A stretch of DNA of 64,000 bases from Candidatus Dormibacteria bacterium (GCA_049521435.1 JBEKOU010000003.1:12688-76687), one strand, 5' to 3'. Numbered from the stretch's first letter, positions 5,376-35,601 are shown. Numbers and translations are program-made. Notes: generated by a model not told the origin, from the letters alone.

Positions 5376-5782
5376 CTCCGGGGATCGGCGAGTTTCGTCA
5401 AACCATGCTCGACTTCGTCGATGGCCGTATCGCCGTCGGTGAATTCGACAGTGTCTACGTGAAGATGTGGGAGGAGCGGCGAGACCACGACTGGGCTGTC
5501 CTTGACGCGGAACATCCCCGGGCGCACCACCTCATACGTGAGAATCGCGCGGAATGGGACCGCATCAACGCCGAGCTGACCCACAAGGGCGAGTTGCTCC
5601 CCGACGACATCCAGACGGCGCTGGACCACATTTACACCGACCTCGATGTCCTCGATCAACGACCGTACGGGATCACGGTGGATCAGCTGCGCGAGGATTG
5701 CCGGCAGGCAATCACCCAGCTCGACGAACTGGGGCACGCGGCGCCCTCATCGGATGAGCGCACCGGAGATGGGGGTGCCTAG
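5372..5782 (+). CDS. cognate immunity protein (colicin D immunity / Colicin_immun-like, tentative)
   Basis: GTGA overlap with the toxin stop. LDFVDGRIAVGEFDSVYVKMWEERR resembles ImmD [23 protein letters not shown] as I recall it. Acidic, 136 aa. Confidence 0.6.
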   Translation: MTPGIGEFRQTMLDFVDGRIAVGEFDSVYVKMWEERRDHDWAVLDAEHPRAHHLIRENRAEWDRINAELTHKGELLPDDIQTALDHIYTDLDVLDQRPYGITVDQLREDCRQAITQLDELGHAAPSSDERTGDGGA

Positions 5783-5839: not shown

Positions 5840-6061
5840 ATGAAGACCCTCTACCTGCGCAACGTCCCCGACGAGGTGGCGAGCCGGCTTCAGGGGATGG
5901 CGAACCGAGCCGGGCTGTCACTCACGGCGTTCGCCGTCCGTCAGCTGGCCGCCGTGGCGCGGCAGTCGGACAACGCCGCGCTGCTCGCTGAGTTGCCCGA
6001 CCTCGGCTTCTCGGCCGACCTCGTACTCAACGATCTCGATGCGGGCCGGGACGCACGGTGA
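5840..6061 (+). CDS. vapB: VapB/FitA-like ribbon-helix-helix antitoxin
   Basis: MKTLYLRNVPDEVASRLQGMANRAGLSLTAF is the classic RHH antitoxin N-terminus. 4-nt overlap with the PIN gene. Confidence 0.85.
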   Translation: MKTLYLRNVPDEVASRLQGMANRAGLSLTAFAVRQLAAVARQSDNAALLAELPDLGFSADLVLNDLDAGRDAR

Positions 6062-6441
6062 TCGTGGTGGATGCGTCAGCCGCAGTTCTGGCCCTGGTCA
6101 ACGCCGGCGACGCTCGCCGCCGTCTCCAGGTCGAGGAGCTCCATGCGCCGGGGCTGGTCGACTCCGAAGTGGTTCACGTCATCCGCCGTCAGGAGAGGGC
6201 CGGCATGCTCGGCTCGACGGAGGCCGCACGTGTGATCGACACGTGGCGCCGCCTCGGGATCCGCCGTCACTCGGTCCAAGGACAGATCGAACGGATATGG
6301 GAGCTGCGCCACAACCTCACGGGTTATGACGCGACGTACGTAGCCCTCGCGGAAGGTTTGGGATGCGAGCTCGTCACTGCAGACCGAAGGCTGACGGGCA
6401 CGCCGAAGCTCAGCTGTCCGGTGACCCTGGTCACGTCGTAG
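6058..6441 (+). CDS. vapC: PIN-domain ribonuclease toxin VapC
   Basis: MIVVDASAAV (first acidic residue), DSEV, TGYDATYVALAEGLGCELVTADRRL (PIN C-terminal acidic motif). Confidence 0.9.
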   Translation: MIVVDASAAVLALVNAGDARRRLQVEELHAPGLVDSEVVHVIRRQERAGMLGSTEAARVIDTWRRLGIRRHSVQGQIERIWELRHNLTGYDATYVALAEGLGCELVTADRRLTGTPKLSCPVTLVTS

Positions 6442-6590: not shown

Positions 6591-7499
6591 GTGGGCACCT
6601 CTCTCCCCTGCCCGTCTGGATCTTCGAGCCGGCCCTGTCTGGCTCGCTTGCGCCGATGGCTCGCGACCCTCACGCTGCTGGCCAGCCTGGCAGCCGGGTG
6701 TGGCACTGGGGCCCACGCAACCGCCGGCACGTCGACCGCCTCGCCGATCACCTCCAGCACCACGCGCGCGACCGGGGCGAACCCCAGCGCGACGGCGAGT
6801 GCGGGCGTGATTGCCACTTCCTACTGCGACGAACAGGACACCACGATCCCGGGAGCCGCGGCGTTTCTCTCTGATCAGGGGCCACGGCCGACCAACCTCA
6901 CGGCCGTCCAGGAGGCCTGGTTCGATATGGAGGCCACGATGGTTCCGGCGTGCTCTGAGATCGTGCCCGAACCACCGGCGGTCACCATGCAGAACCTGAC
7001 CAACGGTCAGCTGAGCAGCGCCGAGTTCCAGACCTGGGTGACCGAGGATGAGATGTGGTGGACCCTCGCCGAGTGGGCTGGCCAGCACGACCAACCCGAC
7101 TTTGTCACCGACTTCTTGTACGGGGGGAGTGGCAACACGTTTACCAGCTTCCTTCGCGCTGGAGGCAAGGTGGTGGACAGCCAGACCTGCGAGTACGCGT
7201 TGAAGTACGACGCGGTGGCGGTGACGGCTGAGCAGATGTCGGATCTCACCGTGAACCGTTTGACGAACGCCGGCGTCGTCTTCGTCGGAGCCGCTATCGG
7301 GCCCTGCACAAGTACATGGACGGCGTCGGACGGCACCGTCACGAACAAGGGCCTAGCTGCCGGGCAAGAGGGACGGGAGCTTGACGTTACGACGACACAC
7401 ACCAACGCCGCGCTCGGCCAGTATCTAGTTGTCAATGACAGTTGGGATCAAGGCGACGACGCGACTGCGGATTCGATCTTCAGTCTAGTTGGGATCTGA
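6591..7499 (+). CDS. hypothetical lipoprotein
   Basis: GTG start behind GGAAGGAAGGA. The N-terminus ends in LLASLAAGCG (lipobox-like), followed by a Ser/Thr/Ala-rich linker. No family recognised. Confidence 0.6.
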   Translation: MGTSLPCPSGSSSRPCLARLRRWLATLTLLASLAAGCGTGAHATAGTSTASPITSSTTRATGANPSATASAGVIATSYCDEQDTTIPGAAAFLSDQGPRPTNLTAVQEAWFDMEATMVPACSEIVPEPPAVTMQNLTNGQLSSAEFQTWVTEDEMWWTLAEWAGQHDQPDFVTDFLYGGSGNTFTSFLRAGGKVVDSQTCEYALKYDAVAVTAEQMSDLTVNRLTNAGVVFVGAAIGPCTSTWTASDGTVTNKGLAAGQEGRELDVTTTHTNAALGQYLVVNDSWDQGDDATADSIFSLVGI

Positions 7500-8847
7500 A
7501 GGATTGGGCCGCCGCAGGTTACTCGCGGTACTCTGTGCGCTGAGCGCGATTGTCGTGAGCACCGGGGCCACGGCGGTGCTCGCCTACTCCGGGAATGGGG
7601 TGACCGCCAACTGTCAGCCTGCCGCGGGACTGAGCCTGGCGATCGGAAAACCTCCACAGCCGGGGCCTGCTGGTAGCGTCGCCGCCGATGGCAGCCTCAC
7701 CCTCTACTGCCGGACCACGGGTACCAACTCGCGAGACGGGATCTATACCCCCGGGACCAACCCGCCGCCTCCCAAAGCCGGCACGCCCTGCAGCGTGAAC
7801 ATCGGCTACGAAGGCGCTCAGGTGCTTGGCCAATCGTTTCTGGAGTCCGAGTACCTGCCCGGCGCGGTGACGGTCTTCCCGTTCGCTCTTTGGACCGGGA
7901 CCATCAATGCCGACATCGTGCCTTCATCGGGCTCCTTCGGCGACCTCTGGGGGAGTGTGGCCGACACGGCACCGGCGGCACTCGGGGTCAATTGGGCAGC
8001 CGCCTCCCAGTACGGACCCGCCCCACCCAGCGCTCTACCCGACTCAGGGCTCGCCACGGGGGGGTTCATCATGTCTGGACTGGAGAACCAGACGCTCGTC
8101 GCCTCAGTGACGACCGAGCCCGGCGGCGATGGGGAATGGGAGAAGAGTTCCGGCGGCGAGTGGCTGTGCGACGGGCCGCGGCTCAGTCTCACCGTCCAGC
8201 CGGAGCCCGACGTGGCCACCCCGCCCTCCGAGACGCCACCAGTCGAAACCACCTGGGCAGTGCCGACCGTGCAGCAGGCAATGGCCGTGGCCGGTGTGAC
8301 GGCTGGACAGGTGCAGACCAGCGCTCCGGACAACTACGTCGTCTTCGCGCCCACGACGTTCTGGATCACCCCGCAGCCCCAGGGGCCTGACGTCCCCCCC
8401 GTGGTCACGAACGTCATCGGTCCCCCCGACGCCAACGGCGAATCCATCGTCTACAGCTACTACCTGGCCGTGGAGCCGTCCGACACGATCAACTGGACCT
8501 TCGGGGACGGCACGACCGGCACGTCCCAGGCGGAGAGCTCGGGACCGGGGGAAGCTGGGATCACCCACTACTACAAGCAGATCAGCGGTGAGGGGGCACT
8601 GCCAGCCGCCGGTTCGACCGTCTCGGCGGCCCAGGACGTGACCGTGACCGCCTTCGTGGGCTGGATTGACGGCACCAACACCGCCTATTACGAATGCGTC
8701 ACTCCCGACGGCGGGGTTGACGGCATCAACCACAACACCCAGGCCCAGGCGATAACCGCCTGCAGCATCACCTACCCCGACGCGCTCGTCGACGCCGCCC
8801 TCCCGGCCAAGCCCGTCTACCAGGTCCGGACCGTCCCGGTGGCGTGA
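7489..8847 (+). CDS. secreted protein with a C-terminal PKD-like module
   Basis: Signal-like RRRLLAVLCALSAIVVSTGATAVLAYS. INWTFGDGTTG...ITHYYK matches the PKD WxFGDG...HxY signature. Overlaps the upstream lipoprotein gene by 11 nt. Confidence 0.6.
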   Translation: MGSEGLGRRRLLAVLCALSAIVVSTGATAVLAYSGNGVTANCQPAAGLSLAIGKPPQPGPAGSVAADGSLTLYCRTTGTNSRDGIYTPGTNPPPPKAGTPCSVNIGYEGAQVLGQSFLESEYLPGAVTVFPFALWTGTINADIVPSSGSFGDLWGSVADTAPAALGVNWAAASQYGPAPPSALPDSGLATGGFIMSGLENQTLVASVTTEPGGDGEWEKSSGGEWLCDGPRLSLTVQPEPDVATPPSETPPVETTWAVPTVQQAMAVAGVTAGQVQTSAPDNYVVFAPTTFWITPQPQGPDVPPVVTNVIGPPDANGESIVYSYYLAVEPSDTINWTFGDGTTGTSQAESSGPGEAGITHYYKQISGEGALPAAGSTVSAAQDVTVTAFVGWIDGTNTAYYECVTPDGGVDGINHNTQAQAITACSITYPDALVDAALPAKPVYQVRTVPVA

Positions 8848-8848
8848 C

Positions 8849-9412
8849 GTGCTGGGGGGGCGACCGCGACAACCCCACCGCGGTGGGCAGGCCACTGTGG
8901 AGTTTGCTCTCGTCTTTGGCGTGTTTCTCCTGGCACTGATGGCGATCCTCGACACCTGGATCTGGACCATCGAGACCGATGCCGCGGATGCATCCGTCGA
9001 ACAGGGCATCGGGGTTGCGATGTCGGCCCAGGGCTCCGCAACCAGCCTCACTCCCGCGCTCACCGATGTGTACGCGAACGTCCTTCCGCTCCTGCAGCAA
9101 CCGATGCTCGGGACGACCGTGGAGAACTGGTACGCGTCCAACCTCGCCGCGCTGCGCGGCGAGATCGGACCGAACGCATGCCCGACCGCCGACCAGGTGG
9201 CCGACTACTTCAACGATCTCCACTCGGGCTATGACGGAGTCGGGCACGTCGTCGTCTGCGCCGCCGACGACGGCGATGGCCACGTCACGGTGGCGATCAC
9301 CGGCTATGCCCTCTCCATGGTGCCGCCCGGCTTCGGGCCCTTCAACTGGCGCGGTTGGGGCCTCCCGATCTCAGAGACGGCCTCCGTCAACGTGGGCACG
9401 TATTCGCCATGA
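8849..9412 (+). CDS. TadE-like pseudopilin
   Basis: GGQATVEFALVFGVFLLALMAIL is the TadE/TadG N-terminal motif. Starts 1 nt after the upstream stop. Confidence 0.7.
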   Translation: MLGGRPRQPHRGGQATVEFALVFGVFLLALMAILDTWIWTIETDAADASVEQGIGVAMSAQGSATSLTPALTDVYANVLPLLQQPMLGTTVENWYASNLAALRGEIGPNACPTADQVADYFNDLHSGYDGVGHVVVCAADDGDGHVTVAITGYALSMVPPGFGPFNWRGWGLPISETASVNVGTYSP

Positions 9413-9918
9413 GAACCCGGCCCAGTTGGCGCCGCGGCCAGCGAGCACAGGCCGCCCTCGAGATGGCCCTGGTGCTCCCCGTCATGATCGTCATCGTCTG
9501 TGGATTCGTGGGGATGATGCTCGAGCTCAGGGCGGAGAACGAATTCCAGACGGCGGTCGATCTCTCGGCTCAGGCAGCGCTGGTGCCTCCACTCGGAGAT
9601 CAGACCGCCAGCCAGGCCGATTCCGCCTATGCCTTCTTGCACACTCTCAACCCGAGCGGCAGTGAGAGCGGCTACCTGACCGTGACCACACCGATCACCT
9701 GCACAGGCCCCTACCTCGAGGGGGAGATCGACCTCAGCGCCAGGGGCATCCCGGCCCCCGTCACCTGCACCGCCCAGGCCACGCTCAACTTCTCCGCAAC
9801 CCCGATCAGCGTCTTCTGGTTCTGGTCGATCCAGCTCAGTGCCACAGCGGACGCGTATCCGCCCCAGTACCGGCAGTGCCAGACCACGTCGGGCTCGACC
9901 AGTCCCTTCCAATGCTGA
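9409..9918 (+). CDS. TadE-like pseudopilin (second copy)
   Basis: ATGA overlap with the previous gene. RGQRAQAALEMALVLPVMIVIVCGF. Confidence 0.7.
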   Translation: MRTRPSWRRGQRAQAALEMALVLPVMIVIVCGFVGMMLELRAENEFQTAVDLSAQAALVPPLGDQTASQADSAYAFLHTLNPSGSESGYLTVTTPITCTGPYLEGEIDLSARGIPAPVTCTAQATLNFSATPISVFWFWSIQLSATADAYPPQYRQCQTTSGSTSPFQC

Positions 9919-10355
9919 GTCGCCGCCAGAGCCGGATCCGAGAGCACGGCCAGATCCTGGTGATGTTCGCCTTCTCGATGCTCTTCCTCATCGTGGGCAT
10001 GATCGCCGTGGCCGTGGATCTCTCCCAGCTGTACGAGGCGCACGTGCGCGCACAGGACGCCGCGGAGCAGGCGGCGGCGGCCGGAGCGAGCCAGGTCGAC
10101 TACGTCGCCGCCGAGAGCAGCGTTGCCTCTCTCCTGCCGTCCTTTGCCTCGGTCTGCAGCGGTGCCGGCGACGCCTTCAGCGGCGTCGTGGGCTCGACGA
10201 CGTGCACGAGCCCAGAGGGAACCGATGACGTGGTCGCGTCCGTCACGGTCCGAGCCTCGGTGGCTTTGCCACTCCCGTTCTTGGGCGGCACGTTCACCAT
10301 CGCAACGACGTCCACCGCCGCGCCCGTGGTGGGCGGACTGGCGCCGGTGGGATAG
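9912..10355 (+). CDS. TadG-like / pilus-assembly N-terminal domain protein
   Basis: ATG at 9912 overlaps the previous stop. EHGQILVMFAFSMLFLIVGMIAVAVDLSQLY resembles the Tad N-terminal domain of TadG-type proteins. Confidence 0.6.
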   Translation: MLSRRQSRIREHGQILVMFAFSMLFLIVGMIAVAVDLSQLYEAHVRAQDAAEQAAAAGASQVDYVAAESSVASLLPSFASVCSGAGDAFSGVVGSTTCTSPEGTDDVVASVTVRASVALPLPFLGGTFTIATTSTAAPVVGGLAPVG

Positions 10356-16246: not shown

Positions 16247-17440
16247 GTGCGAGGCAGATACGAGCACCGGGTGTGGCAGTGGAACCCATCGATCTACGCC
16301 CCCTCCAAACACCGGAGGGGTTGCGAGTACGAAGCCTTTGTGCCTGAGCGGATCGCCGAGCTCGAGCCAGACCTGCCCGGTGCGGTGGCAGGAGTGGTCT
16401 CCGACGCGGAGGCGGCGATTGCCGAACTCAACCGCGGGGACAGGCTGGAGCTGCAGCCGCTGGCCCGTCTCCTCCTGAGGACCGAGTCCATAGCCTCCTC
16501 GAAGGTCGAGGGCATGCAGGTCGAGACACGGACGCTGGCTCGCGCCGAGGCCAAGCAGGAGGTCGGAAGGTCGATCGGGGCCGAGGCTGCCGGAATCCTG
16601 GCCAACATCGATGCCATGCAGCTGGCCATCGAGCGGGCGGTGGCAGCTGATGCCATCACGCAGGACGACCTCCTCGACATCCACCGCCGACTCCTGGCAC
16701 GAGCTCCCAATGCCAGCGCCATGGCGGGCAGGTTCCGGCAGGGCCAGAACTGGATTGGGGGAAACGACTACAACCCATGCGGAGCAGACTTCGTCCCGCC
16801 ACCGCCCGAGGAGATGCCCCCGCTCCTGGATGATCTCTGCCGTTTCGCCAACGACGATAGCCTGCCTCCACTGGTCCAGGCTGCAATCGCCCACGCGCAG
16901 TTCGAGACCATTCACCCGTTCGAGGACGGGAACGGGCGCACGGGCCGCGCACTCGTCCAGGTCATCCTGCGCCGGCGTGGACTGGCACCAACCTTCGTCC
17001 CACCGATCAGCGTCGCGCTGGCGAGAGACAAGGGGACGTACATCCGAGGCCTGACCGACTTCCGGGAAGGACTTCTCTCCCGCTGGATCGAGATGTTCGC
17101 GGCGGCCGCCGCTCGGGCGGCGACACTGGCCACGAGCTACGTGGCTTCGGTTGAGCTGCTGCAGGCGGGCTGGCGTGAACAAGTCCGATCGCGCTCGAAT
17201 CCGCGGTCGGACGCTGCGGCGTGGGACCTGATCAGGGTCCTGCCGGCGCATCCCATCATCACGGTGGCGGTTGGGGTGGCGGCCACAGGCAGGAGCAAGC
17301 CGGCAATCTCCAATGGGATCAGCGAACTCCAGAGCGCCGGTGTTCTCACATCGCTGACCAGCTCGCCCCGGAACCGCGCCTGGGAAGCCGCCGGACTCCT
17401 GGATCTCGTCGAGGAGGTGGAATCCGGCGACTGGGAATGA
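16247..17440 (+). CDS. fic: Fic family protein (class II, N-terminal inhibitory motif; AMPylase-type active site)
   Basis: HPFEDGNGRTGRAL matches HxFx(D/E)GNGRxxR. SSKVEG matches the (S/T)xxxE(G/N) inhibitory helix. The C-terminal part looks like a winged helix. Confidence 0.9.
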   Translation: MRGRYEHRVWQWNPSIYAPSKHRRGCEYEAFVPERIAELEPDLPGAVAGVVSDAEAAIAELNRGDRLELQPLARLLLRTESIASSKVEGMQVETRTLARAEAKQEVGRSIGAEAAGILANIDAMQLAIERAVAADAITQDDLLDIHRRLLARAPNASAMAGRFRQGQNWIGGNDYNPCGADFVPPPPEEMPPLLDDLCRFANDDSLPPLVQAAIAHAQFETIHPFEDGNGRTGRALVQVILRRRGLAPTFVPPISVALARDKGTYIRGLTDFREGLLSRWIEMFAAAAARAATLATSYVASVELLQAGWREQVRSRSNPRSDAAAWDLIRVLPAHPIITVAVGVAATGRSKPAISNGISELQSAGVLTSLTSSPRNRAWEAAGLLDLVEEVESGDWE

Positions 17441-26321: not shown

Positions 26322-27170
26322 CTAGGAGCTGGTGGTCGTCGTGGTGGTGGTCCCGCCCCCACCACCTCCGAAGCCGCCGAATCCGCCGCCGCCGAAGCCA
26401 CCGAACCCGCTCCCGCCCGTGAAGCAGCCGGACGGACCGGCGGGCTCGATGAGCAGGGAGCTGGCGGTCACCACACCCGAGGAGCTCTTGGGGCCGATGG
26501 CGGCGACGCAGGTGCCGGACGTCAGGTCGGAGACCGAACCCGCGGTCGTCGTGGAGACCGAGGCGGTGCTCGGTACCGTGATGCCCTGGCTGGAGCCACC
26601 GGTGGGCTGGACGGTCACCACGCCGCCGCTCACGGCGGTGACCACCCCCCGGACGCTCGCGAAGTCGAAGTTGAAACCACCGGAGGGTCGCGGAGCGAAG
26701 CTGAAGTCGGGTCGGCCGCCCGGGAAGCCGCCCGGATTGCCGCCCGCAAACGAGGTCGCCGGGCAGGAGCCGTTGACCTCCGGCGAGACCGTCACCCGGT
26801 TCGCAACGATGGTACCCGCGGCGTCGCTGCCGGTCGCGGTGATGCAGCTCCCGACCGCGATGTCGGAGACGCTGCCGGTCCCGGTCTGGCTGATGGGTGT
26901 CGAGCTGCTGAAGTCGACGGTCACGTCGCCGCTCGAGGTGTTGAGCACGAGGGTCGACCCGCTGAGGCTGACCACGCTCCCGTCGGTGAGGTTGCCATCC
27001 CGGAATCCGCCGTATCGGCCCGGCAAGGAGCTGCCCGTCGTGCCGCAGGCCGCGATCACGAGCGCCACGCCGGCGAGCGTCGCGACGGTGGCCACGCGCG
27101 CGCGCCAACGGCCAGCGGCCGGCCCGCGTTCCGCCGTGCCCCTCCGCGTCGCCAGCAACCTCTTCACCAC
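26322..27170 (-). CDS. lipoprotein with two DUF5666-like beta domains and a Gly-rich/poly-Thr tail
   Basis: Lipobox LAGVALVIAACG. Repeats: GSVVSLSGSTLVLNTSSGDVTVDFSSSTPISQ...VSDIAVGSCITATG and VRGVVTAVSGGVVTVQP...ITVPSTASVS...VSDLTSGTCVAAIG. Tail GGFGGGGFGGFGGGGGGTTTTTTTSS. GTG at 27170 is assumed; an ATG at 27314 is also in frame. Confidence 0.6.
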   Translation of the reverse strand: MVKRLLATRRGTAERGPAAGRWRARVATVATLAGVALVIAACGTTGSSLPGRYGGFRDGNLTDGSVVSLSGSTLVLNTSSGDVTVDFSSSTPISQTGTGSVSDIAVGSCITATGSDAAGTIVANRVTVSPEVNGSCPATSFAGGNPGGFPGGRPDFSFAPRPSGGFNFDFASVRGVVTAVSGGVVTVQPTGGSSQGITVPSTASVSTTTAGSVSDLTSGTCVAAIGPKSSSGVVTASSLLIEPAGPSGCFTGGSGFGGFGGGGFGGFGGGGGGTTTTTTTSS

Positions 27171-27336
27171 TCCTCGGACCTCGACCGGTTCCCCGGAGCT
27201 TGGGGGTGGCGCCGGTCGCGATGCGCGGCCGGCACCACCCGGGGGGGAGGTCGTAGATCGGTAGCGAGCCCATTCCACCCCAGGCCACCTTTCGAATCCG
27301 TGATGCCGATCCATGTGAATCCGCGATGGCGCTTCA

Positions 27337-28467
27337 ATGACGCCCGATAGCATGCGCATCGCCCTCATCGCCCCGCTCATCGCCCCGCTGCACGAGCCCC
27401 AGATGGGCGGCGTGCAGACCTTCCTGGTCGACCTGGCTCGGGGTCTCGCCGGGCGCGGACACGATGTCACCGTCTTTGCCGCCCGCGGCTCCCGGGTGGA
27501 GGGGGTGCGGGTCGTCGACACCGGGGTGGACTCCGCGCTGCTCGGCACCACCCTCTTCCGTCCGGAGGCCTCGGAAGCGATCCTGGATGCGCGGGGTGCC
27601 GCCGCCAGAGCCGCCGGGAAGACCGCCGCCGAGGCCGCCTTCGCCGCCACGGCAGCGCTCATCGGAGAGGACGAGCTCGAATTCGACCTCGTCCACAATC
27701 ACGCCTTCGACGTCCCGGCGATCCGCCACGCCGCGAACCTCACCGCCCCGGTGCTCCACACCCTCCACATGCCCCCCGACCCCGGTATCGGCGCTGCCCT
27801 CACCGCCGCCCGCCGAAGCCCCCGCCCGCCGCTCGTCGCCGCGGTCTCGGAGGCCCAGGCGGCGTCCTGGCGCGACCTGGTGGAGATCGACGCCGTGCTC
27901 CGTCCCGGGATCCCGACGACGGTGATCCCGTGGTCCCCGATCCCGACCTCCGGCCGCCTCCTCTTCGCCGGCCGCCTCTCACCGGAGAAGGGGGCCCGGG
28001 AGGCGATCGTCATCGCCCGGGCGGCGGGGCGGCGCCTGCTCCTCTGCGGCCCCGCGTACGACCCAGAGTACGGCGCCCAGCTGCAGGCGCTCGACGACGG
28101 CCTCACCCTCGAGGTCCGCCCCGCCCTGGTGAGGTCCGCGCTCTGGGCGGAGATGGCCTCTGCCGCCGCCGTGCTCTGCCCGGCAGGATGGGACGAGCCC
28201 TTCGGCCTGGTGGCGGCAGAGGCCAACGCCTGCGGGACCCCGGTGGTGGGCTTCCGCAGGGGCGGCCTCTCCGAGGTGGTCGCCGATGGGGTCACGGGGA
28301 TCCTGGTCGCGGCGGGCGACGTCGCCGGGGCGGCCGCGGGAGTGGGACGGGCGGATCAATTGAGCCGCCAATCCTGCCGCAGCCACGCCGAGCGTCACCT
28401 CGACCTGGAGGCGACCCTCGACGCCCACGAGCGAACCTACCGCCGGGCCGTCGGGAACCGAGGCTGA
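27337..28467 (+). CDS. GT4-family (GT-B) glycosyltransferase
   Basis: MRIALIAPLIAPLHEPQMGGVQTFLVDLARGLAGRGHDVTVF and EPFGLVAAEANACGTPVVGFRRGGLSEVV. The start may be the ATG at 27352. Confidence 0.9.
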   Translation: MTPDSMRIALIAPLIAPLHEPQMGGVQTFLVDLARGLAGRGHDVTVFAARGSRVEGVRVVDTGVDSALLGTTLFRPEASEAILDARGAAARAAGKTAAEAAFAATAALIGEDELEFDLVHNHAFDVPAIRHAANLTAPVLHTLHMPPDPGIGAALTAARRSPRPPLVAAVSEAQAASWRDLVEIDAVLRPGIPTTVIPWSPIPTSGRLLFAGRLSPEKGAREAIVIARAAGRRLLLCGPAYDPEYGAQLQALDDGLTLEVRPALVRSALWAEMASAAAVLCPAGWDEPFGLVAAEANACGTPVVGFRRGGLSEVVADGVTGILVAAGDVAGAAAGVGRADQLSRQSCRSHAERHLDLEATLDAHERTYRRAVGNRG

Positions 28468-28485: not shown

Positions 28486-29385
28486 TCAGGCCGCCGCGAC
28501 CCGGTTGCGGCCCTCGGCCTTGGCGACGTAGAGGGCGTCGTCAGCCCGGTGGACGAGGACCTCGGCGTCCTCGGTCCCATTGGTGTGGCCGACGCTGACC
28601 GTGACCCGGATCTGGCTGCCGTCGTCGAGGGTGAAGGGCGCGGCCGCGATCACCTGCCGCAGCCGTTCGGCCATGACCCGGACCCCGTCGGGCGGAGTGT
28701 CGGTGAGCACCGCCAGGAACTCCTCGCCTCCCCAGCGCCCCAGGGCGTCCTCGGTGCGCATCGCCTGCTGGAGGCGCGCCGCGACCTCGCGGAGCACGGC
28801 GTCACCGGCGAGGTGACCGTGCTCGTCGTTGACGTCTTTGAAATGGTCGATGTCGACGATCAGGACGCCCACGCTGCGGTCGTGGCGCCGCGCGGCGCTG
28901 ATCACCGAGCGCAGGTGCTCGTCGAGGTGGCGGCGGTTGTAGATGTTGGTCAGCATGTCGATGCGCGAGACCCGGTCCAGCTCGGCGTTGCGGGTGCGCA
29001 GCTCGTCCTGCAGCCACTTGGTCCGGAGTGCGGCACTCACCCGCGCCATCAGCTCATTGGCCTCGAAGGGCTTGCGCAGGTAGTCGTGGGCACCGAGCCG
29101 GAGCCCGTTCACAACGTCGGCGGTGTCGACTCGCCCGGTCAGGAAGACGACGGGGATGTCCTTGAGCTGGGGATCCGCCTTGAGCCGCTCCAGGGTGGCG
29201 TGGCCGTCGAGCACCGGCATCTCGACGTCGAGGAGGATGACGTCCGGGTGGTACTCGCGGCAGGCGTCGATCGCCTCCGCTCCGTTGACCGCCTCGACGA
29301 CGGTGTGTCCATCGGTTTCGAGCTGGCGCCGGAGCACGGCCCGCACCACCATCGAGTCGTCGGCGACCAGGATCGTGCCGTTCAC
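28486..29385 (-). CDS. response regulator-diguanylate cyclase (REC-GGDEF, WspR/PleD-like)
   Basis: ILVADDS...ILLDVEMPVLDG...YLRKPF receiver. GGEEF active site with an RTED (RxxD) I-site five residues upstream. Confidence 0.95.
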   Translation of the reverse strand: MNGTILVADDSMVVRAVLRRQLETDGHTVVEAVNGAEAIDACREYHPDVILLDVEMPVLDGHATLERLKADPQLKDIPVVFLTGRVDTADVVNGLRLGAHDYLRKPFEANELMARVSAALRTKWLQDELRTRNAELDRVSRIDMLTNIYNRRHLDEHLRSVISAARRHDRSVGVLIVDIDHFKDVNDEHGHLAGDAVLREVAARLQQAMRTEDALGRWGGEEFLAVLTDTPPDGVRVMAERLRQVIAAAPFTLDDGSQIRVTVSVGHTNGTEDAEVLVHRADDALYVAKAEGRNRVAAA

Positions 29386-29771
29386 TGGAGCTCCTTGGCG
29401 AGCTGGTCGGCGTCGAGCACCAGGATCATCCGCTGCTCATCGGCCCGGATCACCCCGGAGACCACCGGGTTCTCCTGGCCGGAGGGCGGGGTGGTGATCG
29501 CGCTCTCCTCCACCCGGAGGATGCCGATGGCGCTCTCGACCACCAGGCCAAAGCGCTCGCCGCCGCCGTCCAGGACGAGGACATGCCCGGCGCCGTGGCC
29601 GAGCACGGAGAGCACGGTGAGGATCTCGTCCCCACGCCGGAGCACGCCGGCGATCCCGTCCTTGGGCACGGGCAGGGGGGTGATCCCGTAGGGCAGCCGC
29701 ACCTCCTGGACCCGCTCGATGGGGACGGCCCACTCGCCGTCCATCGTCTCGAAGTGGACCAGTGTTCTCAT
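29382..29771 (-). CDS. cheW: CheW-like coupling protein (second copy)
   Basis: 129 aa from the ATG at 29771 (C-terminal part of track ORF 29382..30659). WAVPIERVQEV...GIAGVLRRGDEILTVLSV...FGLVVESAIGILRV. 4-nt overlaps on both sides. Confidence 0.8.
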   Translation of the reverse strand: MRTLVHFETMDGEWAVPIERVQEVRLPYGITPLPVPKDGIAGVLRRGDEILTVLSVLGHGAGHVLVLDGGGERFGLVVESAIGILRVEESAITTPPSGQENPVVSGVIRADEQRMILVLDADQLAKELQ

Positions 29772-31156
29772 GGCTCGGGTGTCCTCGTCAGCCGGTGGTC
29801 GATCATGCGGACCAGCTCCTCGATCTGGTAGCCCTCGAGGGCTACCTCGGCGGCCGCGGAGCTGCGGCCGAGAGCGGCCCTGGCGACGCTGAAGGCCCGG
29901 CGGGCCTGGCGCGATTCGCCCTGGAGCTCGAAGGCGAGGCCCAGCTGGAACTGGGCGATGGCATGGTCGGGGTCGAGGTACACGACCTTCCGGAGCGCGG
30001 CCACCGCGGCGGCCGCGTCGCCCGCCTGCAGACCGGCTTCGCCCGCAGCGAGGAGGGCCGCGATCGAGGGGTCGCCGCCGCACTCGTTCGTCACGGCCAC
30101 CGGGAGTGGCGGCTGGGACGGCGCGGAGGCCACGTGCGGCGTGGAGACCGCGGAGGGAGCGTGGAGAGAGCCCAGCTTGGCCCCCGCGGGCACGGAGGGC
30201 CGGGAGCCTCCCCGGGCCTCGGCGTAGGTCGCGGCGGCCCGGACGCCGTTGCCGCGCCCGGCGTCCGGAGCCGGCACGGCTGAGACGTGAGACTTGGTCC
30301 GCTTGGAGGGGCCGCGCGAATGGCTCGGATAGTCGGGGGCGGGGAGGATCTGGGCGGCCGGGTCCGCCGGCACCGAGTCGGGCTGCCGGTACGCGAAGGC
30401 GGTGCCGACCCGCACCAGGTGAAAGCGCTCGGTGACCTGCCAGAGCGACTCCGAGTAGCCGAGGAAGACCCATCCGCGCGGGTCCATGGTGGTGCGGATC
30501 CGCTCCAAGGCGGCCAGCACGTCGGGGCGGTCGAAGTAGATGAGCACGTTGCGGCAGAAGACGACCTCCGCGCCCCGCGCCGGCGCCGGGGCCGGGTCGC
30601 GGATCAGGTTGTGCCGGAAGACGGTCACCTTCGACCGTAGCTCGGGGACGATCTCCCACTGGTCGCCGGCCCGGCGGAGGTACCGGCTGCGCTCCTTCTC
30701 GTCAAGCCCGGTGAGCTGCCGCTCCTCGTAACGCCCGCTGGCGGCCTGGCGGAGGGCACGGGAGGAGATGTCAGAGGCGACCACCTGCCACCTCGCGATG
30801 CCGCTGTCGGCCAGAATCATGGCGATGGTGTAGGGCTCCTGTCCCCAGGCACAGCCGGCGCTCCAGACGGTGAGCGGGGAGTGGAGGGTGGGCACGACGT
30901 CGCGCCGGAACGCGGCGACCTGGGCGGGGTCGCGGAAGAAGGAGGTCTCCTGGACGGTGAGCTCGTCGAGGCAGGCCTGGAGCGCCGGCCCCTCGGCGGC
31001 GATCTCCTCGACGATCGTGGAGTCCGGCACACCCCGCTGCTCCGCGGTGTGGTGGAGCCAGTAGTCGAGGCGATACCGCTGGGCGGGGTCCAGGCGCAGG
31101 CCGACGCTCCGTTCCACGAACTCACTGGCGGTATCGAGCAGGATCTCGCTGGTCAT
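29768..31156 (-). CDS. cheR: CheR-type methyltransferase with a C-terminal TPR region (WspC-like)
   Basis: ETSFFRDP, VWSAGCAWGQEPYTIAMIL and VVFCRNVLIYFD. The C-terminus AVAALRKVVYLDPDHAIAQFQLGLAFELQG is TPR-like. Confidence 0.9.
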   Translation of the reverse strand: MTSEILLDTASEFVERSVGLRLDPAQRYRLDYWLHHTAEQRGVPDSTIVEEIAAEGPALQACLDELTVQETSFFRDPAQVAAFRRDVVPTLHSPLTVWSAGCAWGQEPYTIAMILADSGIARWQVVASDISSRALRQAASGRYEERQLTGLDEKERSRYLRRAGDQWEIVPELRSKVTVFRHNLIRDPAPAPARGAEVVFCRNVLIYFDRPDVLAALERIRTTMDPRGWVFLGYSESLWQVTERFHLVRVGTAFAYRQPDSVPADPAAQILPAPDYPSHSRGPSKRTKSHVSAVPAPDAGRGNGVRAAATYAEARGGSRPSVPAGAKLGSLHAPSAVSTPHVASAPSQPPLPVAVTNECGGDPSIAALLAAGEAGLQAGDAAAAVAALRKVVYLDPDHAIAQFQLGLAFELQGESRQARRAFSVARAALGRSSAAAEVALEGYQIEELVRMIDHRLTRTPEP

Positions 31157-32208
31157 GCGGGCACCGCTACGCCGGCAGCGCGGAGCACCGCGGCGGCGAT
31201 CTCGGAGAGGGGCAGCACCCAGGTGACACCGCCATTGTCATGGGCCGCCTTGGGCATCCCGTAGACGGCCGAGGACTCCTGATCCTGGGCGATGGTCGTC
31301 CCGCCGATCCGCCGGAGGGCAAGCAGCCCCGAGGCCCCGTCGTCCCCCATTCCGGTGAGGATCACGCCGATCCCGCGCTCGTCGCCGCAGTCGGCCATGC
31401 TGTGGAAGAGGACGTCGGCGGATGGGCGGTGGAGGGTCACTGGCTCGTCGAGAAGCGACAGCCGGTGGCCGCGCCGCACGATGGCGTGCAGCCCCGGCGG
31501 TGCCACGAGCACCATCCCGGGCCGGAGCGGGGCGCCGTCGACGGCGAGCTCGACCGGGAGCGCGGACTCGCGCCGCATCCAGCCGAGGAAGCCGTCCACG
31601 AAGCCGGACTGCAGGTGCTGGACGACGATGACGGGGCGCTGGAGCCCGCCCAGGCCGGCAAGAACCCGTGCCAGAGCGGGGGGGCCACCGGTGGAGGCCG
31701 CCAGTCCGACCACGCCATCGGAGCTGCGCCTCCCACCGGCGGCGGCGGGGCGGAGCTCCCGGACCGGCGGGCGCCGCAGCCGCTCGCGGCGGCGCTGCGA
31801 GAGGTGTCCCAGGGCACGAAGGCGCTTGCGCAGCTCGGCTCCGACGGCGACGTCCCACCTGGCCGGGTACGTCATGACCTCCACCGCGCCGGCGACGACC
31901 GCCGCCATCGAGGCGTCTCGCCGGTGGTCGGAGGGGACCATGAGCAGGATGGGCACGGGGGCGAGGGCGAGGATCTCCCGGACGAGGCCGGCGGCCTGGT
32001 CACTGTTGGAAAGCCCGGACATGTCGAGGCCCACGAGGTCGGGGTGATCCCGGTCGATGGAGGCGACGGCCTGGGCGGGGAGGACCTGAGCCACCACGCT
32101 GGCGTCACGGTCGGCCTCGACGGCCCGTGCGAGCTGTGTGGCCCAGGGACCCGTCTGCCCGCTGACGATCAGCACCCGCAGGATGTCCTTCGCCGGCACG
32201 GCGCTCAC
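31153..32208 (-). CDS. cheB: CheB-type methylesterase with a degenerate receiver domain
   Basis: GLAASTGGPPAL, QHLQSGF, HRPSADVLF and LTGMGDDG catalytic-domain motifs. The GTG at 32208 overlaps the upstream small ORF by GTGA. The receiver lacks the acidic pair and the conserved Lys. Confidence 0.85.
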   Translation of the reverse strand: MSAVPAKDILRVLIVSGQTGPWATQLARAVEADRDASVVAQVLPAQAVASIDRDHPDLVGLDMSGLSNSDQAAGLVREILALAPVPILLMVPSDHRRDASMAAVVAGAVEVMTYPARWDVAVGAELRKRLRALGHLSQRRRERLRRPPVRELRPAAAGGRRSSDGVVGLAASTGGPPALARVLAGLGGLQRPVIVVQHLQSGFVDGFLGWMRRESALPVELAVDGAPLRPGMVLVAPPGLHAIVRRGHRLSLLDEPVTLHRPSADVLFHSMADCGDERGIGVILTGMGDDGASGLLALRRIGGTTIAQDQESSAVYGMPKAAHDNGGVTWVLPLSEIAAAVLRAAGVAVPA

Positions 32209-32381
32209 CTCACCGGCCCTTCGACGGCCGAAAGACCGGTCGCTACGGTGCCGCGCCCAGAGGCCCGCTTCAGCGCCCGCCGCATGGCGGCCTGCTCCAG
32301 CTCGCGCTCCCTGGCGGCCCGGCGCACGGCGCGGCTGATCGCGGCCCGCCTCAGGGCGCGGTCCTCGGATGGCTGGGTCAC
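32205..32381 (-). CDS. unannotated 58-aa Arg/Ala-rich ORF coupled to both cheA and cheB
   Basis: GTGA overlap with the cheA stop and GTGA overlap with the cheB start. VTQPSEDRALRRAAISRAVRRAARERELEQAAMRRALKRASGRGTVATGLSAVEGPVR. GC3 is about 90%. It falls below the 60-aa cut-off of the track. Confidence 0.4.
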   Translation of the reverse strand: MTQPSEDRALRRAAISRAVRRAARERELEQAAMRRALKRASGRGTVATGLSAVEGPVR

Positions 32382-34672
32382 CGCTCCGCCCCCAGCAGCC
32401 GCTCCACCGCGGACAGCAGCGCCGACTGGTCAAAGCCGCTCTTCACGATGTAGCCGTCGGCGCCGCACTCCAGGCCGCGCCGGCGGTCCTCATCGCTTCC
32501 CCGGGAGGTGAGGATGATCACCGGCAGCGAGGCGAGACCGGGCTGCTTGCGGATTGCCTCGGTCAGCTCGAAGCCGTCCATCCTCGGCATCTGGACGTCG
32601 GTGAGGACCAGGTCGGGGCGCTCGTGGGAGATCTCCACGAGCGCCTCCTCGCCATTGACGGCCACCCGCACGCGATAGCCGGCGTTCTCGAAGATGGAGC
32701 GCTGCAGCTCGCGGACGGTCAGGGCGTCGTCGACCACCAGGATCGAGGCCGCACGCTGCGTGACGGCCTCCCCCTGTGCGACTCCGCTGGCGGCCTCCTG
32801 GGACCGGTCGCCGCTCTCCATGCGGCGGGCCCGCTCGATCAGACCCGCGGCCTCGAGCACCAGGAGGATGCTGCCATCGGGCTGGACGCCGGCCCCGGCC
32901 ACCGCGGGCAACCGGGGGATCAGCTCGCCGAGGCCCTTGACGACGACGTCGCGCTGATCGACGAGGTCGTCGACCTTGAAGGCATGGCTCCGGGTGAGTC
33001 CGGCCAGGACGACGGCCGGACCTTCGGTGCCGTTGCCCGTGCCGAGCACGGAGGCGAGGCTGCTGATCGGCACCGGACGGCCGTCCAGCATGGTCATTGC
33101 CCGCCCGCCCACCGTCGCAGAGGGCTGAGGCGGCAGCACCGCACGGACCGAATGGAGCGGGATGGCGTAGGCCTGCCCGCCCGCATTGATGACCAGGCAG
33201 CGGAGCGTCGCCATCGTGATGGGCACGGCGATCCGGAACTCCGTGCCCATACCGGGGTCAGATCGGACCTCGATGCGCCCGCGCACCGCATTGAGACTGG
33301 CCCGGACAGCATCCAGCCCCACCCCGCGGCCGGACACGCCGGTGAGCTTGGTGGCGGTGGTGAGGCCCGATCGGAAGATGAGATAGAGGGCGGCCTCGTC
33401 GTCCATCTCCATGGCGGTGCGGTCGGTGCGACCCGCCGCCTCCCGAACCCGGGCGACGTCGATGCCCCGGCCGTCGTCGCTCACCGCGATGACCACCTCG
33501 GAGCCGAGCTGCATGGCGTGGAGCCGGATCGTCCCCTCGACCGGTTTGCCGTGAAGGCGTCGCTCGTCAGGGGACTCGACGCCATGGTCGACGGCATTTC
33601 GGACCAGATGGAGGAGGGGATCGGCGAGACGCTCCAGGACGCCGCGATCGATCTCGGCGTCCTCGCCCCGGGTCTCGAAGCGCACCTCCTTGCCGGTCTC
33701 CCGGGCCAGGTCGCGCACCGCCCGGCGGAGCCGGGGAGCGAGTGACATGACCGGGATCATCCGGGCGTGAAGGGCCAGCTCCTGCAGCTCGTTGAGGGAG
33801 CGGACCAGGTCGCGGTACTCGGTGAGACCGGAGGGATCGCGTTCCAGCCGCTCGAGGAGGGCACTCCCGAGGCGGAGGGTCGCGGCCGATGCCTCGCCGA
33901 TCAGGCGGACCAGGTCGTCGATCCGGTGGACCGGGATCTGGAGCATCTCGGTCGCCGTGGCCCGGGCCGGCTCGGCGTGACCCGCGGCGCCGTCGGAGGC
34001 CCCGCTAATCTCCGCTGCCGCCCCGTACCCGGCAGGGTGCTCGCCCGCCGGTGCCGGCGGTGGAACCGGCTCAGAATCCGAGGGAGGCGCCGGAGGTGGC
34101 GCGGGCGGCCCTGAGGAGGCGGGCGCCGTCCGATCGGGCGCCGGGCCGCCGCCTGGCGCAGAGGGCGAGGGGGTGACCGGCGCGCTCGGGGCCGGGGCCA
34201 TCCCTGCAGGTGGGGCTGCCGGCTCGGCGAGCCGGGAGGTGGTGCCCGCGACGGCCTTGTCCTCCACGACCGGAGGCCCCCCGACGGCGATGCGCAGCCG
34301 CTGCTCGGCCTCGAAGGCGACCTCCTCGTGCTCCTGGCCGGCGACCGCGAGAGGGATCAGGGTTCGGATCGCATCGACACCGGCGAGAACCGCGTCGATC
34401 AGGGCGGTGTCGACCCCGCGCCGCTCGCGGCGCACCTCTTCCAGAAGGTCCTCCAGCGCGTGCGCCACGCGGGCGACGTGAGGCATCCCGACCACCGCGG
34501 CGCCGCCCTTGATGGTGTGAGCCTCCCGGAAGAGGGACGCGACCACCTCGGGGTTGGCACCGCCCTTCTCCAGCTCGAGAAGCTCGTCGACCAGGGTGTC
34601 GAGGCGACCCTCCGCCTCGGTCGCGAAGAGGCGCTGGAAGTCGCCCTCCGAGAGCGACTCCTGAGGGCTCAC
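32378..34672 (-). CDS. cheA: hybrid CheA histidine kinase with a C-terminal receiver (WspE/FrzE-like)
   Basis: Hpt FREAHTIKGGAAVVG, Pro/Ala linker, HLVRNAVDHGVE...DDGRGID...SGRGVGLD, a CheW-like domain, then ILVVDDA...LVLTDVQMPRMDG...GYIVKS. Confidence 0.95.
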   Translation of the reverse strand: MSPQESLSEGDFQRLFATEAEGRLDTLVDELLELEKGGANPEVVASLFREAHTIKGGAAVVGMPHVARVAHALEDLLEEVRRERRGVDTALIDAVLAGVDAIRTLIPLAVAGQEHEEVAFEAEQRLRIAVGGPPVVEDKAVAGTTSRLAEPAAPPAGMAPAPSAPVTPSPSAPGGGPAPDRTAPASSGPPAPPPAPPSDSEPVPPPAPAGEHPAGYGAAAEISGASDGAAGHAEPARATATEMLQIPVHRIDDLVRLIGEASAATLRLGSALLERLERDPSGLTEYRDLVRSLNELQELALHARMIPVMSLAPRLRRAVRDLARETGKEVRFETRGEDAEIDRGVLERLADPLLHLVRNAVDHGVESPDERRLHGKPVEGTIRLHAMQLGSEVVIAVSDDGRGIDVARVREAAGRTDRTAMEMDDEAALYLIFRSGLTTATKLTGVSGRGVGLDAVRASLNAVRGRIEVRSDPGMGTEFRIAVPITMATLRCLVINAGGQAYAIPLHSVRAVLPPQPSATVGGRAMTMLDGRPVPISSLASVLGTGNGTEGPAVVLAGLTRSHAFKVDDLVDQRDVVVKGLGELIPRLPAVAGAGVQPDGSILLVLEAAGLIERARRMESGDRSQEAASGVAQGEAVTQRAASILVVDDALTVRELQRSIFENAGYRVRVAVNGEEALVEISHERPDLVLTDVQMPRMDGFELTEAIRKQPGLASLPVIILTSRGSDEDRRRGLECGADGYIVKSGFDQSALLSAVERLLGAER

Positions 34673-35106
34673 TGCGAGATCCGAGCAGGGCTGAGGAGCA
34701 CCGGGACGTCGAGGGCGACGGCCAACCGGGCGTCAGCGACCAGGTAGGTCTCGGTGGTCCCCTCCATGTCGGAATGGCCCACCGATTCGTTCAGTCGGAC
34801 TGTCTGCGGCATGTCGGTGGCCACCAGGCCGGCCGTCCCGTGGGCGGTCTCGACCAGCACCGCGTAGGGCTCCTCCATGCATGCACGGAGGCCGAGCAGA
34901 AGGCCGGTGTCGAGGAGCGGGATGATGTCCCCGCGCACATTGAACACGCCACGCACCACCGGAGGCGAGGTGGGCAGCTGGGTCACCCGCGGCTCGACCA
35001 CCACCTCGCGGACGGTCTCCAGCGCGATGGCGTACGTGTCGCTCCCCACCGGGATCAGCAGAGCGAGCTGTCCCGAAGCTATGCCGGGCGTGGTCGTGCC
35101 GGCCAC
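34669..35106 (-). CDS. cheW: CheW-like coupling protein (first copy)
   Basis: YAIALETVREVV...VRGVFNVRGDIIPLLD...YAVLVETAHGTAGLV. The GTG at 35106 follows GGGGAGAGGGG. The ATG at 35220 is also in frame but lacks an SD. Confidence 0.8.
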   Translation of the reverse strand: MAGTTTPGIASGQLALLIPVGSDTYAIALETVREVVVEPRVTQLPTSPPVVRGVFNVRGDIIPLLDTGLLLGLRACMEEPYAVLVETAHGTAGLVATDMPQTVRLNESVGHSDMEGTTETYLVADARLAVALDVPVLLSPARISQ

Positions 35107-35601
35107 CTCAGGCCCCTCTCCCCCCGGGTGGCGTGAGCCGCGGATTGGGCGGGTTGTGCACTGGACTGTTTCCCCGGGCGGCGCATCCCAGTCACCGAGT
35201 CCGATGCTGGGCCGGGCCATTCGAACGGCCGGATCATTTCACGGGCGCTGTGAAAAGATGGACACGGCCTGACGAGAGTCGGTGACAGGGGTGGACGGCG
35301 GGACGGGGCGGCGGACGGAGAATGGCTGACCTGGGGTGCGCTGGCGGCCCCCACGGGCACTGTCGACCTGGCAGTCAGCGCTCAGTCATCTGACCCAATC
35401 AGGGGGACCCGTTCCGACCCCTTCGGCGGATTTGACCGCCTCACCGGGGCTGATCGACAACAGTCACCGAAAGCCTGTCCGAACTGCAGTTGTGGTCGGG
35501 CGAGCGGGGCTGGAGGGGGAGCCGCCGCAGGCGCCGGCGGTGACCCGATGGCGCACACTGTCCAGGACCGGATCTGATCTCACGTTGATGGGGAGTCGAG
35601 G

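Follow-up and report, generated by a model that had tools for sequence, protein, structure and literature searches.

What does a chemosensory operon sense when no receptor gene accompanies it? The question is raised by a minus-strand gene cluster at positions 28486-35106 of a 64,000-nucleotide stretch of DNA from Candidatus Dormibacteria bacterium (GCA_049521435.1, JBEKOU010000003.1:12688-76687; hereafter the window, with positions counted from its first letter), which encodes CheW, CheA, CheB and CheR proteins and a response regulator with a diguanylate cyclase domain. An earlier note, made from the sequence alone, had likened this cluster to the Wsp system of Pseudomonas, which leads from chemosensory input to cyclic diguanylate (c-di-GMP), and had described it as a receptor-less array whose sensing input it left open. 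Candidatus Dormibacteria are abundant, uncultured bacteria of soil and permafrost, and in the library searched we found no literature linking Dormibacteria or Dormibacterota to chemosensory signalling, chemotaxis or methyl-accepting chemotaxis proteins (MCPs). We consider it likely that the cluster is a functional, Wsp-like chemosensory pathway of the alternative cellular function (ACF) class, and that its receptors are encoded outside the operon.

The operon and its conservation

We assigned domains by Pfam scan, which defined six genes in the order cheW, cheA-REC, cheB, cheR-TPR, cheW and REC-GGDEF (REC, receiver domain), all on the minus strand of a window with a G+C content of ~71%. Pfam found exactly the domains that the earlier note had listed; NCBIfam agreed, aligning CheB over its full length including the N-terminal receiver-like region. 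The first adaptor gene, cheW1 (34669-35106; 145 aa; Pfam CheW, E=4.5e-20), starts at GTG 35106 just after the Shine-Dalgarno (SD) sequence GGGGGGAGAGGGG, and its product keeps the equivalents of E. coli CheW R62, E38 and G57. The in-frame ATG at 35220 was excluded as its start by a TGA in that frame in loci L007 and L094. The kinase gene cheA (32378-34672) encodes a 764-aa hybrid protein (Pfam Hpt-HATPase_c-CheW-REC) that runs from the Hpt domain (P1) through a long Pro/Ala linker without a P2 domain, a dimerisation region, HATPase_c and a P5/CheW-like domain to a C-terminal receiver. Its phospho-histidine motif FREAHTIKGGA, its N, G1, F and G2 boxes and the aspartate of its receiver are kept in all orthologues.

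The methylesterase gene cheB (31153-32199; 348 aa; CheB_methylest, E=2e-54) has a conserved start at GTG 32199 (the ORF scanned with Pfam was 31153-32208), and alignment to structure 1A2O showed the catalytic triad to be intact (equivalents of Ser164, His190 and Asp286). Downstream of it, cheR-TPR (29768-31156; 462 aa; CheR, E=3.6e-45, plus several TPR models) encodes a CheR methyltransferase joined through a Pro/Ala-rich linker to a TPR-like domain of ~90 aa at the C-terminus; residues 12-257 align with P. aeruginosa CheR1 (5XLY) and residues 367-433 with consensus TPR proteins. The second adaptor gene, cheW2 (29382-29771; Pfam CheW, E=1.1e-17), encodes 129 aa, a length found in all seven clusters with delimited genes. 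The last gene, REC-GGDEF (28486-29385; 299 aa; Response_reg, E=2.4e-29; GGDEF, E=1.6e-46), encodes the only response regulator of the operon, which has no single-domain CheY. Its receiver pocket is complete (DD pair, phospho-acceptor Asp, Thr and Lys), and alignment to the PleD and WspR structures revealed a GGEEF active site and an RTED (RxxD) I-site in the cyclase, as had been read from the sequence before.

The cluster had been described as seven overlap-coupled open reading frames (ORFs), a description that holds in part. Overlaps of 4 nt were found, in the sequence and in public gene calls on identical contigs, at four junctions: cheW1/cheA, cheB/cheR, cheR/cheW2 and cheW2/GGDEF. Between cheA and cheB lies a variable spacer of 178 nt (32200-32377, minus strand), which holds the supposed seventh member, a 58-aa ORF at 32205-32381. 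This ORF has no Pfam or NCBIfam match, is not called in L087, L088 or L092, and is absent in L007, where the spacer is 64 nt of unrelated sequence; in L088 and L092, cheA and cheB overlap directly. Compared with close relatives, the ORF shows ~52% amino acid identity and a ratio of nonsynonymous to synonymous substitution rates (dN/dS) of 0.5-0.8, whereas the flanking genes are 84-96% identical. We rejected it as a gene or receptor surrogate in view of this poor conservation and almost neutral evolution; it is probably a fast-evolving spacer, which leaves an operon of six genes without overlap coupling of cheA to cheB in the window.

The six genes gave dN/dS values of 0.07-0.39 at unsaturated dS (0.24-0.56). 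REC-GGDEF is the most conserved (0.07-0.20), with cheA at 0.17-0.20, cheW1 at 0.25-0.31, cheW2 at 0.28-0.35 and cheR at 0.27-0.39. Judged from these sequence comparisons, all six genes are under purifying selection with their catalytic motifs intact.

The same cluster is present in at least 13 species-level genomes of Candidatus Dormibacteria, and its layout recurs in over 15 assemblies made independently, some of them with long-read contigs of 0.5-1.9 Mb. CheA orthologues at 65-100% identity all stand in the same MCP-less layout. The genome had been taken for that of a high-GC, Gram-positive-like organism, which proved wrong: the exact CheA of the window is present on several contigs of metagenome-assembled genomes and bears the NCBI name "Candidatus Dormibacteria bacterium", the nearest species representatives are metagenome-assembled genomes (MAGs) of Candidatus Dormibacterota/Dormibacteria, and since the cluster is conserved in Candidatus Dormibacteria genomes, the host is not an actinobacterium.

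CheA homologues with ~50-61% identity, from MAGs labelled Acidimicrobiales or Actinomycetota, belong to clusters of the same gene order and sizes that are led by an MCP. In these sister clusters (L089, L090, L093, L110 and L190) the order is MCP-cheW-cheA-cheB-cheR-cheW-REC-GGDEF, and the leading MCP, of dCache_1-HAMP or HAMP type, lies a few nt upstream of cheW1. More distant clusters of many phyla also have an adjacent MCP. Because both outgroup and distant clusters are MCP-linked, linkage of the MCP is ancestral, and its loss in Dormibacteria is a derived condition. One MAG named as "Chloroflexia", whose cluster is led by an MCP (L010), was considered as a Dormibacteria relative and rejected on its GC content of 50%, and a genome scan with the CheA of L089, saturated by generic peptide patterns, returned no Dormibacteria locus.

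Receptors: absent from the locus, probably encoded elsewhere

That the operon contains no MCP gene is a genuine feature, and one confined to this lineage. A tblastn search of the window with the signalling domain of E. coli Tsr gave no match at E<=10; as a positive control, the same query finds an MCP beside cheA in nearly all other homologous clusters, across many phyla. MCPs of the nearest relatives and of Dormibacteria, used as queries, gave no credible tblastn match in the window or in other Dormibacteria che loci. No MCP was found by Pfam among the public gene calls of the window and its ORFs supported by third-codon-position G+C (GC3), the ORFs of two of the uncalled stretches (5.3-7.5 kb and 16-18.4 kb) being judged by eye only. 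Nor does an MCP occur within 8-10 kb of any Dormibacteria copy of the cluster, and no MCP remnant was found in the spacer upstream of cheW1. The earlier statement that the operon lacks a receptor gene is thus confirmed, and holds for the 64-kb window too, by tblastn, Pfam and gene calls. A conserved lipoprotein-like gene of 158-176 aa upstream of cheW1 in L088, L091 and L092 was considered as an alternative sensor and set aside, as it is absent from the lineage of the window.

Relative to CheA, the CheW, CheB and CheR proteins are equally conserved in the MCP-less and the MCP-led clades. Since MCPs are the only partners with which these proteins are known to work, their conservation argued for receptors encoded elsewhere. 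An exhaustive HMMER search of 1.8 billion cluster representatives with the MCP of a sister operon (P0121) found clusters whose signalling domain is closely related but set in other architectures; some of their members carry the NCBI labels Candidatus Dormiibacterota or Dormibacteraeota. The MCPs labelled by NCBI as Candidatus Dormibacteria, Dormiibacterota or Dormibacteraeota include P0423, P0435, P0446, P0477, P0521, P0533, P0549, P0552 and P0565, and a search seeded with the high-GC-like MCP P0302 yielded many MCPs labelled "Candidatus Dormibacteria bacterium". Signalling domains of the Dormibacteria MCPs are 48-57% identical to that of the sister operon MCP and are among its nearest non-orthologous clusters. 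One of them, P0521 (707 aa), consists of dCache_1 (under the Pfam cut-off), HAMP and MCPsignal domains, and aligns collinearly with the MCP of the sister operon from residue 13 to 609, a span that takes in the sensor domain, at 41% identity and more closely in the signalling domain. Shorter Dormibacteria MCPs of ~415-435 aa have transmembrane segments, HAMP and signalling domain only.

We then compared accession numbers and contig sizes of these MCPs with those of the operon's kinase. The MCP P0521 is MGA3183780.1, and a CheA 100% identical to that of the window is MGA3183883.1, 103 numbers apart; similarly, the MCP P0497 is HXZ99709.1 and its CheA HXZ99832.1. NCBI numbers the proteins of one submitted genome consecutively, so that the members of each pair should share an assembly and lie roughly 100-120 genes apart. 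Exact matches in the size of the longest contig were found for four pairs of MCP and CheA: P0521 and P0002 (693452 bp; P0002 is 100% identical, rounded, to the CheA of the window), P0483 and P0100 (591736 bp), P0497 and P0075 (410456 bp), and P0484 and P0086 (148277 bp, the contig of L088). The Dormibacteria MCP loci that we fetched have no che genes nearby; the receptors are therefore orphans, as expected if they serve an MCP-less operon.

These results suggest that the receptors of the operon are likely encoded unlinked in the same genome, about a hundred genes away, and that the sensing input is likely an ordinary one, provided by unlinked transmembrane MCPs of dCache-HAMP and HAMP-only type. 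By the accession and contig matches, the canonical chemosensory core would have in these genomes the one or more MCPs that it requires. The description of a receptor-less array with no known input consequently does not extend to the whole genome: Dormibacteria MAGs encode matching MCPs, among them the collinear P0521.

Several further features of the Dormibacteria MCPs were observed. P0521 (~615-707) and P0302 (~390-424) end in long Pro/Ala-rich tails, which could form a flexible tether for the TPR domain of CheR, compare the C-terminal pentapeptide tether of enterobacterial receptors. Pairs of MCPs of different type share an exact longest-contig size (373847, 107225, 91160 and 43949), three of these pairs combining a protein of ~415-424 aa (HAMP-only where annotated) with one of ~640-707 aa and dCache type; this suggests that two or more MCP genes, perhaps closely spaced, are usual in Dormibacteria genomes. 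A further MCP, P0427 (L205-L207; cluster members P0310 and P0423), which is labelled Dormibacterota, has a transmembrane segment, HAMP, a signalling domain and an extra C-terminal domain of ~220 aa without a Pfam match, and its gene, which has transposases around it, adjoins those of a PAS-GAF histidine kinase and a T2SSE-family ATPase. A genome scan with P0427 returned no Dormibacteria locus.

CheB receiver, upstream region and neighbouring genes

Besides the receptors, two parts of the operon set the Dormibacteria lineage apart. All MCP-less clusters that we examined, from 11 distinct genomes, have S/T-G/A/S-Q and one inserted residue where a CheB receiver would carry its acidic pair, and Y, F, A or V in place of the conserved Lys; the equivalent of Asp56 is retained. 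The CheB proteins of the MCP-led sister clusters all keep the Lys, and all keep the Glu-Asp pair except L110 (Glu-Ser). The CheB of the Dormibacteria operon thus lacks receiver residues that phosphorylation requires, and demethylation is probably no longer driven by feedback from CheA. A strict tie between receiver degeneration and unlinking of the MCP was considered and rejected: L026, L039 and L191 have degenerate CheB receivers beside an adjacent MCP, so degeneration is neither unique to the MCP-less clusters nor strictly tied to unlinking. L191 (10001-17416; GCA_038255145.1) represents a third variant of the cluster, with a 4HB-type MCP, a single CheW, a degenerate CheB receiver and a REC-GGDEF gene immediately behind that of CheR; the state of the CheB receiver and the presence of a second CheW accordingly vary independently of MCP linkage.

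Upstream of cheW1 the intergenic gap measures 495 nt from GTG 35106, not the 380 nt first reported; a gap of 381 nt results only if ATG 35220 is taken as the start. The divergent redox gene beyond it was correctly recognised, and encodes a glutaredoxin/pyridine-nucleotide-disulfide oxidoreductase. Within the gap, sequence conservation points to a promoter- or operator-like motif of ~34 nt, CGTGTCCATCTTTTCACAGCGCCCGTGAAATGAT (35233-35266, minus strand), upstream of cheW1. Its pattern, CGTGTCC..CTTTTCACAG..CCC.TG..ATG.T, is seen in the window and in L094, L095, L097 and L099-L108, and the core is kept in all Dormibacteria copies, even where the remaining intergenic DNA is unalignable. An exact scan of 185,579 species genomes gave 16 matches, 13 of them single copies directly upstream of the cheW1 of this cluster, and the 8-kb stretches retrieved for these 13 loci contain no MCP. 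With one copy per genome, the motif was rejected as a guide to co-regulated loci, among which an MCP could have been. It showed no match to the sigma-70 consensus or to an Rfam family.

Between motif and cheW1 start lies a conserved leader of ~125 nt (35107-35232, minus strand), which is highly conserved across 10 lineages and missing from the deeper lineages L088 and L092. RNAalifold pairs GCCGCCCGGGG of the leader with the region of CCCGGGGGG and the SD sequence, with essentially no covariation (-0.02 kcal/mol). The leader had no match to an Rfam family at E<=1, and was dismissed as a known RNA family on this result and the missing covariation support. From the folding model, it may sequester the SD sequence of cheW1. 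By comparison of the sequences, the traits derived in Dormibacteria are unlinked receptors, the CheB pseudo-receiver and the leader that precedes cheW1.

The window had been described as free of flagellar and type IV pilus motor genes, and among the ORFs scanned neither flagellar genes nor those of a pilus motor were found. TadE/TadG-like pseudopilin genes are present at 8849-10355, 19 kb from the operon. They form part of a small Tad/Flp-pilus-like block on the plus strand (7489-10355), without a pilus ATPase in the window, which consists of a 452-aa secreted-looking protein with no family match, a TadE-like gene (8849-9412), an unassigned ORF (9355-9918) and a TadE/G-like gene (9876-10355); Tad pili could be a c-di-GMP target. 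In several lineages, not all, the operon is followed by a convergent gene for a GT4 glycosyltransferase (27337-28467 in the window). Upstream of the latter, the coding strand of 26322-27264 is ambiguous: in the public calls the minus strand carries a gene of 282 aa, whereas by GC3 an ORF of 310 aa on the plus strand is the better candidate. Neither has a Pfam match, and in L087 the homologous DNA forms the N-terminal portion of a GT4 protein called at 611 aa. Stretches of lower GC (~0.66) on the plus strand hold toxin-like or mobile-looking genes. These are a gene for a protein with a Colicin-D-like C-terminus (4314-5375), followed by a small overlapping ORF, within 4314-5782; a PIN/VapC-like ORF at 6058-6441; and, at 16247-17440, a gene for a protein with the Fic motif HPFEDGNGRTGR.

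Known pathways and rival explanations

The cluster shares much of its composition with the Wsp system of P. aeruginosa and P. fluorescens (WspA-F and WspR), and the parts list and output proposed earlier proved accurate. Both have two CheW adaptors (WspB and WspD), a CheA-receiver hybrid without P2 (WspE), a CheR with a TPR tail (WspC), a CheB methylesterase, and a REC-GGDEF protein with GGEEF and an RxxD I-site (WspR), which lead from chemosensory input to c-di-GMP output. In contrast to Wsp, no WspA-type MCP leads the Dormibacteria operon, whose order is W-A-B-R-W-G rather than wspA-B-C-D-E-F-R, and the cognate-type receptors have dCache or minimal, HAMP-only input in place of the WspA sensor. 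Neither the acidic pair nor the Lys is present in its CheB receiver, whereas WspF has a canonical, phosphorylatable receiver. Among solved structures, the REC-GGDEF protein scores better with PleD (E=2e-62) than with WspR (E=3e-44), and the host belongs to Dormibacteria rather than Pseudomonadota. The cluster is therefore outside Wsp proper, from which it differs in lacking an operon-encoded WspA-type receptor and a phosphorylatable CheB and in its gene order.

The ACF class reportedly belongs to the Wuichet and Zhulin classification of chemosensory pathways. The Dormibacteria cluster fits the signature described for that class, with its multidomain output, lack of a single-domain CheY, and CheR-TPR. 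In Munoz-Martinez et al. 2012 (PMC3447774), the combination of CheR-TPR and a multidomain response regulator is given as a hallmark of ACF pathways, and WspC is described as a CheR-TPR protein. ACF clusters in that paper likewise place a CheR with a short TPR domain beside a multidomain REC-GGDEF regulator; Dormibacteria are not covered by the survey, and a term search of the paper found, in contrast to the present locus, no MCP-less operon or pseudo-receiver CheB. The length class of MCPs cognate to ACF pathways is 40H, and the ACF class has been reported in a few Actinobacteria (PMC10746217).

By gene order and sequence identity, the cluster is in truth most closely related to a set of uncharacterised clusters with a leading MCP, which are labelled Actinomycetota (Acidimicrobiales and relatives). 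L089, L090, L093, L110 and L190 match the window in gene order and sizes from cheW1 to REC-GGDEF, with identities of 57-59% for CheA, 58-61% for REC-GGDEF and 45-51% for CheW, CheB and CheR, and their CheR proteins also bear a C-terminal TPR-like tail. They differ in being MCP-led, in keeping the CheB Lys, and in lacking the Dormibacteria leader motif. Overall, the cluster is an ordinary relative of Wsp-type pathways with some lineage-specific traits.

In the pathway that we propose, the two CheW adaptors would couple the hybrid kinase CheA-REC to unlinked methyl-accepting receptors of dCache-HAMP or HAMP-only type. CheA would autophosphorylate on the Hpt histidine and pass the phosphoryl group to REC-GGDEF, the product of a co-transcribed, translationally coupled gene of the operon. 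Phosphorylated REC-GGDEF would then make c-di-GMP for its presumed targets, with product inhibition through the RxxD I-site. CheR-TPR would methylate the receptors and CheB demethylate them, the CheB pseudo-receiver probably allowing no activation by CheA.

Some points weigh against this pathway. Co-residence of MCP and che genes was deduced indirectly, from accession proximity and exact contig-size matches; the P0427 MCP loci have 66% GC, compared with 71-76% at the che loci, and may stem from another lineage; and the MCPs may belong to a second CheA elsewhere in the genome. If they did, the window cluster could signal without dedicated receptors, through the receiver of CheA or by cross-talk. 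Such a division would agree with the orphan state of the fetched MCP loci, whose pairing with the operon is our deduction, and with the one MCP family that adjoins a T2SSE-type ATPase and a PAS-GAF kinase. It is at odds with the 48-57% identity of the signalling domains to that of the sister operon MCP, with the collinearity of P0521 including its sensor, and with purifying selection on both CheW proteins, CheR and CheB, whose only known partners are MCPs; we regard it as quite unlikely. Another alternative, in which the Che proteins form a receptor-independent module and CheR-TPR and CheB modify a non-MCP substrate, would agree with the lack of an MCP from the operon, from the whole window and from the 8-10 kb around the Dormibacteria copies, and with the lost phospho-acceptor pocket of CheB. 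Against it stand the MCPs of matching type, which occur in Dormibacteria assemblies and, to judge by size, on shared contigs, as well as the conserved receptor-contact residues of CheW and the degenerate CheB receivers of clusters that keep an adjacent MCP (L026, L039 and L191), and we hold it to be very improbable.

That the locus is a decaying remnant or an assembly artefact, its MCP lost by mis-assembly or its operon non-functional, is hardly credible. The data do come from metagenome-assembled genomes, and an unconserved 58-aa ORF is called inside the operon; however, over 15 independent assemblies, long-read ones among them, show one and the same layout, the motifs are intact at dN/dS of 0.07-0.39, and the upstream spacer holds no MCP remnant. 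Signs of decay, such as frameshifts or stop codons in the majority of copies or a dN/dS close to 1, were not observed. A last possibility, which we deem unlikely, starts from the derived traits and takes the pathway to be rewired: the receptor genes would be uncoupled in transcription from the operon of the kinase, the lineage-specific, structured leader of ~125 nt would gate that operon by SD occlusion, and CheB would act independently of phosphorylation. If so, c-di-GMP would report a slowly integrated methylation state instead of a rapidly adapting signal, a read-out that would plausibly suit entry into and exit from dormancy in an oligotroph.

The locus also carries a general caution, in that a receptor missing from an operon is not a receptor missing from the genome, MCP genes being often unlinked. 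Under the pathway with unlinked receptors, which we favour, a subclade of Dormibacteria would carry a conserved, selected route from a chemosensory kinase to c-di-GMP with named candidate receptors, and this circuit is a candidate for the control of attachment, matrix production or dormancy.

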